The position numbers were made by a program, and so were the translations under genes. A stretch of DNA of 64,000 nucleotides from an uncultured bacterium (lineage in GTDB: Bacteria > Babelota > Babeliae > Babelales > JABCYS01): contig CAVPKK010000007.1 in NCBI GenBank assembly GCA_963705705.1, positions 268,221-332,220 on the forward strand, in the 5' to 3' direction. Of this stretch, positions 38,912 through 64,000 are shown one piece after another (within the stretch, counting starts at the first letter, position 1; each line of letters opens with the position of its first letter). The notes beneath the pieces are model-generated. The model saw nothing but the letters and a program-made list of their open reading frames with translations, made no database searches and was not told the origin of the DNA.

Positions 38912-40105
38912 TTAAAGTTGCTGAATTTTATCAAGAAAAAATGACACTTCATCTGCAGTATTATACATGCCAAAACTAGCCCGAACCGCGGCATCCAAGC
39001 CTAACTGCTTGGCCAATGGCTGAGCACAGTTATGCCCTGCACGAACGCAAATATTGAATTGGTCCAGATAGGCAGCAACATCATGAGCATGCATGCCATC
39101 TACAATGAAACTTACTAAGCTTCCGCGCTTTTTTAATTCTTCGATGGGCCCCAGCAATTTAATTTTTGGCAACTTCTGCAGGCCCTCAATAGTTTGCTTA
39201 CACAACGTAGATTCATACTTCTCAATCGCGGGGCGATCCAATTGCATGAGGAAATCAATCGTAGCTCCCAGGCCAATAGCTTCAGTAATCGCTGGGGTAC
39301 CAGCCTCAAACTTTCGTGGTGCTGGTTGCCAGGTAGCATGATGGTAGTCAGTGGTAAAGACCATGCCGCCGCCATATTGATATGGTGCAACAGCATCATG
39401 AAGTTCTTCTTTAATAAACAATATGCCAATGCCGCTGGGCCCATACATTTTGTGGCCTGAAAAAGCTAAGAAGTCACAATTCAAATCCCTCACATCGATA
39501 GCTTGGTGAACCACAGACTGTGCGGCATCAACCAAAATTTTTGCACCGGCAGCATGAGCCATGTGTGCAATTTTTTTCACATCTATCTGTGTACCCAAAA
39601 CATTAGAAGTATGAGCAATCGCAACTAGCTTTACGCCTTTACCAATGCATTCTTCTGCATGTGCCATATCGAGCATGCCGTCCGTTAACAAGCGAATAAC
39701 CCTGAGTTCAGCCCCAATTTCATTACAAACCACTTGCCATGGCAAAAGATTACTGTGATGTTCCAAGGCCGAAATCACAACCACATCGCCTTTTTTTATA
39801 TGCTTTGTCGCCCAGGCTTGCGCAATAAAATTAATAGATTCGGTAGTGCCACGAGTAAATACAATTTCCTTGCTTTGGGCATTTAAAAATCTTGCCACTT
39901 TTGCACGCGCTTCATCAAACTTTTCCGTTGCATGTTCGGCCAGTTTATAAATTCCGCGATGCACATTGGCGTAGCCATGCAAATAAAATTGCTGCATAGC
40001 ATCAAGGACTTGTTGAGGTTTTTGTGCCGATGCAGCGGTATCGAAATAAATCAAGTCTGGATTGTGCTCAAACAATGGGAAGTGAGATCGGATATTAGTT
40101 TTCAT
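38912..40105 (-). CDS. sufS: Cysteine desulfurase SufS
   Basis: YFDTAASAQKP, ANVHRG, EHHSNLLPWQ, FSGHKMYGP, RAGHNCAQP. Confidence 0.96.
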   Translation of the reverse strand: MKTNIRSHFPLFEHNPDLIYFDTAASAQKPQQVLDAMQQFYLHGYANVHRGIYKLAEHATEKFDEARAKVARFLNAQSKEIVFTRGTTESINFIAQAWATKHIKKGDVVVISALEHHSNLLPWQVVCNEIGAELRVIRLLTDGMLDMAHAEECIGKGVKLVAIAHTSNVLGTQIDVKKIAHMAHAAGAKILVDAAQSVVHQAIDVRDLNCDFLAFSGHKMYGPSGIGILFIKEELHDAVAPYQYGGGMVFTTDYHHATWQPAPRKFEAGTPAITEAIGLGATIDFLMQLDRPAIEKYESTLCKQTIEGLQKLPKIKLLGPIEELKKRGSLVSFIVDGMHAHDVAAYLDQFNICVRAGHNCAQPLAKQLGLDAAVRASFGMYNTADEVSFFLDKIQQL

Positions 40106-61965: not shown

Positions 61966-64000
61966 TTATTTTACTAATCTCTTTTCTACTTCTCTGCGTA
62001 TTGCTCTTCCCAGTTCACTTTGTGCAATTTCTTCATCTACCACCTGCCGGCGGCGTTTTGGGAGAAAAGCACCTACTTCCTTCAGATAACTGTTAAATGA
62101 GCTTATAGCATCATCAAATTTTCCATCTTCAAGATAATCCATGCCCGATGCAAAAAGTGGCTCATTGTTCAGTAATGTGTCTGCGCCTTTTCGTTCATGA
62201 GCAAGCTCTGCGGCATGAGCAGAAGATTCTTTTGAGAACTGTTCAAGTGCAAGCGTAGCTTTTTCAGGATTGGTTACCAAAAGCTGGCGAGCTTCTTGAT
62301 ATTTCTCACGAAGCTTTCCAACTACATCCTCTTGGGGAATCGGTGAGATCCAGCCAGGGGAAGGCGGCGTTATTCGTCGTCCGACTTGAAAGCTAGCCAA
62401 TCGTTTTTCTACTTCAGCCAAGCTAGCCTCGGCTTGTTTTTTAATTTGAGGAAAATCAATGGCTTGCGGAATCATATCTGCAAATAGTTCACGTGCCTTG
62501 GCCAAGTCGTTCATCTTGAATGCGGCTTTGCCCGAAAGCAATAGCGATTTGAGATATTCTTGGTCAGCCGGATAGCCACGCAGCTGCCAACGATAAAGTT
62601 CTAACAATGGTTCGGCCTTTGCTGCATCCGCTACACTGGCAGTCTTTTTCAAAAGATCCTCAGCATCTGAAAGTAATTTATCCGTTGGCCAAACGTCGAT
62701 ATCGATTAAATCTACATTACGAGTTCTTTGGGCTTGCTCATCTTCAGTTTCATAAATTTCACCTCGAGCATCAATCATGACCACAGCAATAGCATCTTTT
62801 TCGCGAAGCATTTTATACACGATGCGGTAGTTGCCAATGCGAATGCGCCAAAGCCCTTCGAGGCCTTTACCTTTAAGTTCCACCGCTGAACTATTTTTAT
62901 AGCCAAAACTCAGTTCTTCAAGCGCTTCTCTCGCTCGCGATTTTATCTCTTTTGGCAATGGCTCAAGCTGGTTATATGGATCAAATATGAAAAGCAATTG
63001 TTGCGATTCTTGCTCTGCTGATGGCGATACCACTTTCTTTTCTGGAACTACGGCCGATTCTTTTTCAACAGCTCGCAATTGCTGATTGGCCTTATTCACA
63101 AATTCTCTTCGTTCTGGGATTTTGAGATCTGCCAATGCCTTGATAACATCTCTTACATTATCAGCTCGTGCGCTTGATGGCTTTTCTTTGTACTTTGCCA
63201 GCGCTCCTTCAAATTCAATCTGAAGGGTATCGGCCTTTTGTTGCTTATATTGATTTTGTAAAGTTGCAATTTGTTTGCGAATATCCGCATCGGTAATAGT
63301 TAATTGCTGAATATCGTGCAACTTTTGTTTTGCAACATCCAGCTCTTTATTTTCCAATGCCTCATCGAGCCCTTTTATCAAGTTACGTGCTTGGCGAGTT
63401 TGCTGCTCTTGGTGTGCCTTTTTTTCTTCTTCTGTTAGCTCAGCGGCAGCCGCTGAAGGTTTACTCCATTTCGCTACTTTTGCTTTTAGAAGTTGTATTT
63501 CCGTCGCAAGCTCAGGCATGTGCAATGTTTCAAGCTCTGCTATCGCTTTCTTTGCAGCTTTTATCAATGGTGGTGTCGGAGCTTTTCCTAGGAGTTCAAA
63601 TATCTTAACTGTTTGTATTCCAATAAACACATCTCTGAACTGATCAATCTTTTCCCTAAGAAATGACACTTTTTTCTCAAGTGCAGCTTCATCGTACACG
63701 TTTTTGAGTTCGATCGAGGCTTGTTCAAGCAGTTTCTCGGCATCAAGAAAATCCTGAGCTTTCGCAATCGGTTGTGAAAGTAATTCTTCCAAAGTGCGCA
63801 TGGTCGACATTGCTTTTGCCATTAATTCCTGTCGCTCATTTGCTTGTGCTTCGAACGAAATACCTTTTTTTCAGCAGACAACGCTACAAGATTTTGCTGA
63901 GCTTCTTTTGCTGTCTCAAGGTCATCCTTTTGATTTGCAGCTTTTTCAAAATATTCTCGCGCTTTTGCAACGTCTTTTTTCAAACCGTACATACCTTTAT
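61966..64000 (-). pseudogene. Sel1 + RelE-domain gene (copy 7), 5' end off window, 1-nt deletion in A7 tract
   Basis: 63872-64000 encodes the last Sel1 repeat homologous to copy 6, in a different frame from ORF 61966-63822; adding one A at 63865-63871 restores the frame. Confidence 0.75.

Follow-up and report, generated by a model that had tools for sequence, protein, structure and literature searches.

Repeat proteins of Babeliales with an intact RelE domain and no adjacent antitoxin are likely exported, host-directed effectors

We analyzed a 64,000-nt stretch of DNA (the window) from an uncultured bacterium that encodes ankyrin (Ank)- or Sel1-repeat proteins with a RelE domain of conserved catalytic residues and no adjacent antitoxin. 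These proteins are likely Sec-exported effectors that would cut RNA of a protist host, with export likely protecting the producer. Directly supported by the data are the domain layout, the RelE fold and its catalytic residues, purifying selection, the lack of a recognizable antitoxin in the assembled genome, and the recurrence of the fusions. The source organism is most likely a Dependentiae (Babeliales) parasite, and probably a parasite of protists.

The RelE-domain genes form an array at 40102..63822. An earlier note on this DNA had described adjoining RelE-domain genes without an antitoxin; its junctions, its RelE domains, and the missing antitoxin all stood, but the run is not unbroken, since sufB and a short sufD-like gene are interleaved and sufS closes the array. 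The note had overlooked these suf genes as well as the contig end. The features are as follows.

38912..40105, minus strand: sufS, closing the array; overlaps the paralog 1 stop by 4 nt
40102..43881, minus strand: paralog 1, 1259 aa; signal-peptide-like N-terminus, ankyrin repeats, helical bundles, RelE domain, TPR module, helical tail
about 40513-40818, minus strand: paralog 1 TPR module; TPR helices seen when the 40102 ORF was modeled with AF2
about 40819-40875, minus strand: paralog 1 alpha3-like acidic helix
40879-41115, minus strand: paralog 1 RelE domain
43871..47239, minus strand: paralog 2, 1122 aa; signal-like N-terminus, ankyrins, RelE domain (44684-44926), helical tail
47253..50261, minus strand: paralog 3, 1002 aa as called; ankyrins, RelE domain (48042-48284)
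50343..50846, minus strand: short sufD-like gene within the array; matches only the C-terminal half of TIGR01981, below cut-off
50969..52309, minus strand: sufB; start overlaps the paralog 4 stop by 1 nt
52309..55341, minus strand: paralog 4, 1010 aa; ankyrins, RelE domain (53263-53499), longer TPR tail
55357..58380, minus strand: paralog 5, 1007 aa; ankyrins, RelE domain (56305-56541), longer TPR tail
58393..61953, minus strand: paralog 6, 1186 aa; Sel1 repeats instead of ankyrins, RelE domain (59179-59415)
61966..63822, minus strand: paralog 7, 618 aa; RelE domain (62752-62994), without signal peptide or repeats, N-terminus missing

All seven ORFs carry a ParE_toxin/RelE domain, and the genome holds no other PF05016 matches. 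The true start of paralog 3 is likely its second Met, at about 50225 behind AGGA. A Sel1-like frame, different from that of paralog 7, runs in from the contig end, so that the paralog 7 gene must be broken or misassembled near 63.8-63.9 kb; four sequencing runs (short, mostly identical soil-metagenome pieces) gave no cover at 63829-64000. The contig ends where the window ends, and the array runs off it. As the earlier note had stated, neighboring genes are separated by 12 nt (61966/61953 and 58393/58380), 13 nt (47253/47239), or 15 nt (55357/55341) or overlap by 11 nt (43881/43871), and the RBS-like TAGGAGAACCCATG was found at the 61953 and 58380 junctions. Tight spacing by itself is ordinary in this genome, where 39% of 699 same-strand ORF pairs lie ≤20 nt apart by rough ORF calls. 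The longest stretches of the array without ORF cover are 117 and 122 nt, which could not encode antitoxins of the size seen in the nearest toxin-antitoxin (TA) pairs (60-90 aa).

The claim that the locus has no antitoxin gene was thus borne out, there being neither room for one nor a homolog in the assembled DNA. The search for orphan RelB/ParD-like antitoxins that the note had proposed likewise yielded no recognizable antitoxin in the assembled genome: searches for the RelB, Phd/YefM, ParD, RelB-like, and RHH_1 families returned zero matches each, the RelB search being a weak one that scored above cut-off in 0 of 14 control genomes, and two HTH_3 matches were read as a Fic neighbor and a LexA-like ORF. 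A profile built from antitoxins flanking the nearest standalone RelEs had no match in the window's genome (G000), and none in 8 of the 13 fusion-bearing genomes, including G021, a single contig of 98% completeness in which a fusion is present. Matches occurred in the other five, mostly beside their own standalone toxins; one (C4 in G061) had no partner among the neighbors checked, and a weak antitoxin match in G253 (E 0.007) lay about 8.5 kb from the G253 fusion. At 12 of the 13 fusion loci, antitoxin profiles gave no match at E 0.01 or better, and the thirteenth had one match, of E 0.009, to an ORF lying at the edge of its contig. A rough script run as a control picked up a small upstream ORF at 72 of 79 standalone RelE relatives. 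We consider it extremely unlikely that an antitoxin encoded in trans or otherwise unrecognized (protein or antisense RNA) restrains these proteins, for example from unassembled DNA upstream of the array. That DNA is unseen because the contig ends there and sufC is absent from the genome assembly, which leaves the absence of an antitoxin upstream unproven; novel antitoxin families also escape Pfam, and the antitoxins found elsewhere in five fusion-bearing genomes are Phd-like. Besides G021 and the fusion loci, what speaks against such an antitoxin is the same-genus orthologue, which sits between sufC and sufB with spacers of only 26 and 103 nt.

Of the 261 genomes of the order, 13 proved in HMMER searches to carry Ank/Sel1-type RelE fusions, and no fusion adjoins an antitoxin in the assembled DNA; a word-indexed homolog search returned 10 proteins, and the 80 best loci of a contig scan included a single fusion. 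The fusions are repeat proteins of 430-1260 aa that align over their whole length at 23-40% outside the window's genome and one close relative. Two types were distinguished, type 1 (the window's; 19 aligned domains) and type 2 (9 aligned domains). The types may have arisen independently: they form separate clades (SH-aLRT 96 and 100), with type 2 falling near standalone toxins of its own genus; an AU test did not reject joining the two (p 0.52, 86 columns).

The AF2 model of the domain (pLDDT 88.3, pTM 0.81) matched HigB/RelE toxins in the PDB, namely 5mje (Z 11.2), T. thermophilus 2khe (Z 9.9, rmsd 2.1) and ribosome-bound E. coli RelE 4v7j (Z 9.7, rmsd 2.3, 89 aligned). Using a mapping of catalytic positions taken from PMC12620021, we found that the equivalents of K52, K54, R61, R81, and Y87 are R or K, R, R, R, and Y in 19/19 type-1 and 9/9 type-2 domains, and thus in 28/28 fusion domains spanning at least three families of the order. 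Moreover, dN/dS of the RelE core was 0.14 among the seven paralogs, with synonymous variation at three of the four catalytic Arg codons; the core is under purifying selection. PF05016 covers both RelE and ParE kinds (PMC11980606), and a ParE gyrase inhibitor was rejected because RNase catalytic residues, absent from ParE, are present here. The ESM Atlas gave ordinary RelE/ParE clusters only (0.84-0.86), which serves as a lead only. A catalytically silent domain, which would bind RNA or the ribosome as part of a secreted scaffold and would need no antidote, would suit the low basic charge and lost alpha1 described below, the scores of the window's domains under the TIGR02385 cut-off, and the presence of seven copies within a housekeeping operon. 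Given the five catalytic positions kept in every domain despite the divergence of the whole proteins, we regard it as very unlikely.

The two types differ in charge. The type-1 core is nearly neutral (net +1.5), whereas standalone and type-2 domains range from +7.3 to +8.6 (type 2, +8.3). K+R in alpha1 came to 0.26 in type 1 versus about 2.9, and in both AF2 models a nonhelical DP[FY] loop takes the place of alpha1; type 2 likewise aligns poorly in alpha1. In E. coli RelE, alpha1 and alpha3 touch helix 31 (PMC2807027), and the basic alpha1 that contacts 16S helix 31 is missing from type-1 domains of the window's kind. Since this helix docks on 16S rRNA, the type-1 target may differ, and the domain may dock poorly on any ribosome. 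Furthermore, the substrate of the fusions is not readable from their residues, because M. tuberculosis RelE1 shares the catalytic set and cuts 16S rRNA, not mRNA (PMC12620021). Changed specificity could even be the main protection: type 1 would no longer dock alone on bacterial ribosomes and would cut only once held by its repeats at a host target, be it the 80S ribosome, rRNA, tRNA, or viral RNA. This idea is compatible with export and draws on the loss of basic charge from both helices that contact the 16S head, the tail after the catalytic Tyr being acidic in 14 of 19 type-1 members. However, type 2 stays basic and has no adjacent antitoxin either, so that charge loss is not required, and the rRNA surfaces bound by RelE are conserved enough for E. 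coli RelE, which is toxic in yeast and human cells, to cleave mRNA on eukaryotic ribosomes (PMC2807027, PMC4773802). We consider it unlikely that changed specificity is what chiefly spares the producer, although the loss of the basic alpha1 would be compatible with the specificity for eukaryotic ribosomes that the note had offered.

According to the earlier note, the RelE domain is always followed by an acidic helix and TPR-like helices, and the helix might inhibit the domain intramolecularly. The first statement holds within the window, where the stretch after the domain carries a net charge of -3 to -4 over 15 residues in 7/7 ORFs, but not across the family: the helix is neutral or basic in 5/19 type-1 members, the same-genus orthologue included, 12/19 end ≤69 residues past the Tyr, i.e., without a TPR tail, and all nine type-2 fusions are tail-less, ending 1-6 residues past the catalytic Tyr. 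These relatives have no adjacent antitoxin either. Cis-autoinhibition, in which the active site stays masked by the acidic helix, by the TPR tail, or by the helical bundle ahead of the domain until the host takes the mask away, could account for the frequent acidity of the helix, for an Arg in it that is conserved in ≥90% of 26 rows, as is the Asp of DP[FY] in 26/26, and for a helical hairpin that precedes the domain in most type-1 proteins; fused TA genes are also known (PMC11980606). The note's check of the helix against the active site was made on the domain model, and the argument rests on aligned residue ranges. The model's helix aligns through alpha3 of RelE in its active form on the ribosome (model residues 6-98 against 4v7j 2-95), whereas alignments to RelB-bound chains stop before the helix (2kc8 at 86, 4fxe at 83), and RelB inhibits RelE by displacing alpha3 (PMC12620021). 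The helix thus overlays alpha3 in active RelE, and cis-autoinhibition is quite improbable. In keeping with this, hhalign comparisons of three antitoxin groups with three flanking segments all (9/9) gave probabilities of ≤1.4%, and no antitoxin Pfam family was found in the chain. A fused TA monogene was rejected on these two results. A fused antitoxin relic was also rejected. The stretch IIKELEDL ahead of the domain looks like EELEDL of the antitoxins, but the hhalign probability was 1.4%, and no fusion ranked among the top 25 matches of a profile of the antitoxin C-terminus.

Export is the best explanation of producer self-protection that the sequences suggest. A signal-peptide-like N-terminus is present in 6/6 intact window paralogs, with a polar Arg (6/6) and Gln (5/6) in or near the hydrophobic stretch. 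Putative signal peptides were called by a hydrophobicity heuristic with a cut of 2.2; scores of ≥2.2 were reached by 25/33 fusions versus 2/128 standalone RelEs, against a background of 5% of 462 internal windows. Eight members fell under the cut, two narrowly (2.12) and one at 2.01, and the rest are fragments, broken, or unexplained (P0019). The genome also encodes three secretins. Together with the recurrence of antitoxin-free fusions across the order, these features favor Sec export, one of the protections that the note had offered.

With regard to the target, the ATP/ADP translocase (TLC) family was found in 21/21 genomes searched; by genomic proxy (a 1.38-Mb genome and TLC translocases), the lifestyle is predicted to be intracellular, and the same order includes a member named Ca. 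Dependentiae. In genome G055, paralogs end at the C-terminus in either RING or RelE: the fusion ends a tandem array whose other four members combine a signal-like N-terminus, Sel1 repeats, and a RING finger. RING ligases require the cytosolic ubiquitin system. A host target is supported because the G055 fusion sits among these Sel1-RING ligase paralogs. The eukaryotic target proposed in the note therefore gains from lifestyle and RING-ligase neighbors but not from its own argument, as a missing immunity gene cannot separate the host cytosol from mitochondria or co-resident microbes. Indeed, exported proteins aimed at bacterial-type ribosomes within the host, in the mitochondrion or in co-resident bacteria, would need no immunity, since a protein that cannot re-enter the producer calls for none there, for any target. 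RelE evolved on 70S ribosomes, and Chromulinavorax remodels the host mitochondrion (PMC6561590). We nevertheless judge such a target improbable: Pfam found no translocation or pore domain, the RING-ligase neighbors in G055 speak against it, and intracellular bacteria that compete with kin keep immunity genes (PMC3482391).

In the reading that we prefer, host-directed export, the N-terminus would serve as a Sec signal, and the chain would have left the cytoplasm by the time the RelE domain, which lies 600-900 residues further on, folds. A type II secretion system or outer-membrane vesicles could carry the protein to the host, where swappable repeats would choose the site and the RelE domain would cleave host RNA, most probably ribosome-bound mRNA, and dampen host translation. 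In type 1, the lost basic alpha1 and the acidic alpha3 may provide a further safeguard by making the domain dock less well on ribosomes of the producer. We hold more tentatively a broader proposal, which may well claim too much, that Babeliales turned RelE into exported host-translation shut-off nucleases, possibly twice, with the antitoxin dropped, the docking face rebuilt, and Ank/Sel1 arms aiming at protist ribosomes or chosen RNAs.

The fusions share with RelE/StbE type II TA toxins (PF05016, TIGR02385; 4v7j, 2khe, HigB 5mje/6af3) the fold (Z 9.7-11.2), the five catalytic positions, and the C-terminal alpha3 helix. Those toxins, however, are ribosome-dependent mRNA interferases made as small monodomain cytoplasmic proteins with an adjacent antitoxin and a basic alpha1, whereas the window's are repeat proteins of 618-1259 aa with a signal-like N-terminus and no antitoxin beside them, and type 1 has the DP[FY] loop and near-neutral charge instead. 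Classical polymorphic toxin systems have an adjacent immunity gene, which was not found beside the fusions, and a constant N-terminus with a swapped C-terminal toxin. On the latter point, the N-terminal repeats vary and the toxin domain is constant in the window paralogs, while the G055 paralogs end in RING or RelE. The CARF-RelE protein Cami1 is controlled by cA4; its structure (PDB 8phj) aligns to our model at Z 8.6. Cami1 and the multidomain BECR/RelE proteins (fused TA monogenes, ToxM, PtuZ; Gerdes 2025, PMC11980606) likewise hold RelE within a larger protein but work inside the cell that makes them, in its cytoplasm or membrane and controlled by an antitoxin or a ligand, unlike the export proposed here. 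That review set aside multidomain proteins lacking an antitoxin, and its main text names no ankyrin, TPR, Sel1, signal peptide, or Dependentiae. Closer are the host-directed Ank/Sel1/TPR Sec/T2SS effectors of endosymbionts (Amoebophilus APD1, Tox-REase-8 of Wolbachia/Amoebophilus; Zhang et al. 2012, PMC3482391), which, like the proteins here, combine a signal peptide (putative here), repeats, and an enzymatic toxin domain without an immunity gene and occur as paralog sets in bacteria that live inside host cells; here, the toxin domain is a classical TA RelE. That source reports one RelE among polymorphic toxins; it is from Paenibacillus and is given together with RHS repeats and Imm54. The ankyrin proteins that Dependentiae secrete (Chromulinavorax destructans, PMC6561590; TM6 genomes, PMC4776705) also have a signal peptide and ankyrins, with Sec and type II secretion and ATP/ADP translocases in common, but no toxin domain is described for them there, and the word "toxin" occurs zero times in the main texts of both papers.

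Altogether, the RelE fusions are a variation on an already known effector design; the lack of an antitoxin holds up but is what one would expect of an exported enzyme aimed at the host, and the fusion family is the more interesting finding. For the takeover of protist hosts by Dependentiae, the family offers, in at least 13 genomes, a concrete, assayable candidate enzyme with a predictable target, translation. Moreover, one order holds standalone TA pairs, tail-less fusions, and rebuilt fusions, a natural series for a TA toxin losing its antitoxin and becoming an effector. If the broader proposal is true, it would be a direct conversion of a TA toxin into an effector, with living intermediates within one bacterial order.

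On the minus strand, 40102-63822 contains seven large ORFs (paralogs 1 to 7), each with a ParE_toxin/RelE domain; five have ankyrins, one has Sel1 repeats, and one is missing its N terminus. They hold all PF05016 matches in the genome of this contig (G000; 1.38 Mb, 96% complete). Their setting is as follows.

Window 38912-64000: suf operon carrying inserted putative effector genes, compared with loci L011, L134, and L135.
Window 50343-50846: sufD, 167 aa, the C-terminal half of the family model, versus 268 aa in G061.

The earlier note had described adjacent RelE-domain genes that overlap by 11 nt or stand 12 to 15 nt apart. 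These junctions and spacings were as stated, with AGGAG/AGGGG-type ribosome sites, but the array is interrupted by sufB and the short sufD and ends with sufS; sufD may have been truncated by the insertion or be naturally short. The largest free stretches between array genes measure 117 and 122 nt. The window ends with the contig, and sufC was not found in the G000 assembly, where its best matches were generic ABC ATPases (24 to 41% identity); thus, what the operon holds farther upstream lies beyond the assembled sequence. Upstream of paralog 7, nearest the contig end, Sel1-like sequence continues in another frame, reflecting either a true break or an assembly error at a spot that reads from four runs leave uncovered. 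Elsewhere in G000, more Sel1-repeat genes occur without the RelE module (C1:28471-34351), and the ends of contigs C3, C5, and C6 carry foreign-looking ORFs (cytochrome-oxidase-like and other high-GC-style sequences) and are perhaps mis-binned or chimeric.

A HMMER search of 1.84 billion representatives returned 27 proteins at an E value of 1e-10 or better, of which the top 22 belong to the fusion family (21 long fusions or fragments and one 179-aa piece) and the others are ordinary RelEs. Of 261 same-order genomes, searched twice, 13 had long-frame RelE matches. Type 1 fusions (G000, G001, G055, G061, and G219) combine repeats (TPR, Sel1, or ankyrin) with a helical bundle and a RelE domain starting DP[FY]. 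In type 2 fusions (G196, G249, G252 with two, G021, G253, G254, G256, and G038), RelE is the terminal domain, preceded by a signal-like N terminus, ankyrins, and a linker of low complexity. Each type formed one clade in a tree of 79 RelE cores, and joining the two clades was not rejected (p 0.52), so the fusions may have either one origin or two. In four genomes of one genus (G249, G252, G038, and G254; L127, L129, L131, and L132), the type 2 gene occupies a conserved position, flanked on one side by genes for membrane subunits of ATP synthase and on the other by a cysteine-synthase-like gene (names read from translations). At about 320 aa, the ORF taken there as subunit c exceeds the usual length severalfold. 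The G196 gene (L130:2860-4705) is apparently split, a signal-ankyrin ORF overlapping an ankyrin-RelE ORF. In two type 1 members, L124:6012-8405 (G219) and protein P0026, the Sel1 blocks are separated by an additional globular insert, which in P0026 weakly matches DUF5092.

The earlier note had proposed that the array lacks antitoxin genes and called for an orphan search. In G000, the RelB, PhdYeFM, ParD, RelB-like, and RHH_1 profiles each gave 0 matches, the RelB control being weak (0/14 control genomes over the cutoff). HTH_3 matched twice, once in a LexA-like gene and once beside a Fic-like gene (labels by reading of sequence).

G000:C5:6967-8018: Fic-like gene, presumably so from its motif, preceded by an HTH_3 gene; this is apparently the sole toxin-antitoxin-like pair seen in G000.

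As a sharper test, we built profiles from the proteins that partner the closest standalone RelEs. At 72/79 such loci a rough script identified a small upstream ORF, and nearly all of 25 standalone same-order loci had one. Both positive controls were detected. Nothing was found in G000 (best E about 1) or in 8 of the 13 fusion-bearing genomes, including single-contig G021; matches in the other five mostly adjoined their own standalone toxin. Where flanking DNA was assembled, no antitoxin-like ORF was seen beside fusions of either type. A recognizable antitoxin is therefore absent from the assembled G000 DNA, and the proposal holds as far as the assembly shows. A hidden antitoxin, for instance in the unassembled DNA upstream of the array, is the least probable explanation, given among other things the empty search of G021.

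Inhibition in cis by the acidic helix following RelE, another proposal of the earlier note, fared poorly. In a 465-residue model (pLDDT 91.7, pTM 0.56), a 19-residue helix connects the catalytic Tyr to a TPR module matching Tah1 (Z 12.5, rmsd 2.4). In HigB toxins the C-terminal helices align with this helix, and the alignment to RelE in its ribosome-bound, precleavage state (4v7j 2-95 with model 6-98) extends through alpha3. Those to RelB-bound chains stop short of the helix (2kc8 at 86, 4fxe at 83), as does that to the isolated crystal form 4fxh (at 87). Since RelB inhibits by displacing alpha3 (available text of PMC12620021), the modeled placement, judged by aligned ranges, corresponds to the active arrangement. 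The RelE flanks showed no homology to cognate antitoxins. The helix is acidic in 14/19 type 1 members, which favors some role, but across the family it does not always lead into TPRs: the protein ends within 69 residues of the Tyr in 12/19 type 1 members and within 1 to 6 in 9/9 type 2 members. Cis-inhibition thus seems very unlikely.

The K52, K54, R61, R81, and Y87 equivalents, mapped following the available part of PMC12620021, are kept in 19/19 type 1 and 9/9 type 2 domains. An AF2 domain model (pLDDT 88.3) matched HigB and RelE structures at Z 9.7 to 11.2, and dN/dS among the seven paralogs was 0.14 in the RelE core and 0.14 to 0.22 in other segments (Nei-Gojobori, nonindependent pairs). 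On the other hand, mean core charge is +1.5 in type 1 versus +7.3 to +8.6 in other groups, and alpha1, which with alpha3 grips 16S helix 31 in Escherichia coli RelE (PMC2807027, in part), is in type 1 a nonhelical loop with 0.26 basic residues versus about 2.9 (models and alignment). These losses count against a plain RelE reading. They would fit a silent domain, which the conserved catalytic set makes highly improbable, or changed docking; changed specificity as the main protection is unlikely. Mycobacterium tuberculosis RelE1 has the same catalytic set yet cuts 16S rRNA (PMC12620021, in part). Hence, activity is likely, with an uncertain substrate.

Export best explains the missing antitoxin. 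A hydrophobic N terminus is common to both fusion types: by a heuristic score of 2.2 or more, 25/33 fusions were positive, whereas only 2/128 standalone RelEs were, as were 5% of the 462 internal windows scored. The same heuristic marks 452/981 long G000 ORFs, so the fusions would use the lineage's common route. G000 encodes three secretins.

G000:C5:21262-44059: three secretin genes (ORFs of 506, 852, and 884 aa), adjoined by pilus/T2SS-like genes.

ATP/ADP translocases were present in 21/21 genomes searched, and family member P0016, named Ca. Dependentiae, is encoded by G061, a genome of the same order. Available portions of the literature describe type II secretion, translocases, and ankyrins in TM6 genomes (PMC4776705) and signal peptides in 78% of Chromulinavorax ankyrin proteins (PMC6561590). 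In G055 (L123:7300-13395), five tandem paralogs share a signal-like N terminus; four are Sel1-RING proteins, candidate secreted bacterial RING E3 ligases whose function needs the host ubiquitin system, and the fifth and last is a TPR-RelE fusion. The E. coli enzyme RelE also cleaves on ribosomes of eukaryotes (PMC2807027), and yeast and human cells are poisoned by it (PMC4773802). We consider it somewhat probable that the fusions are exported host-directed RNases, with export removing them from, and so protecting, the producer, and weakened docking giving type 1 a further safeguard. Export toward mitochondrial or bacterial targets is quite unlikely.

Signal peptides with Ank/Sel1/TPR repeats and a toxin domain without immunity are a described endosymbiont effector design, in PMC3482391, which calls immunity absence typical of intracellular bacteria and, among polymorphic toxins, lists just one classical RelE. 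A 2025 survey of multidomain RelE/ParE proteins left aside those without an antitoxin (PMC11980606, in part), and no Ank/Sel1-RelE fusion was described among the literature matches listed. The family is a variant of a known effector design. In G001, of the same genus, sufC and sufB are separated by a single fusion copy, whereas the two genes directly overlap in G002 and G061. Insertion of effector genes into the suf operon looks genus specific, and this position would place them under suf transcription.
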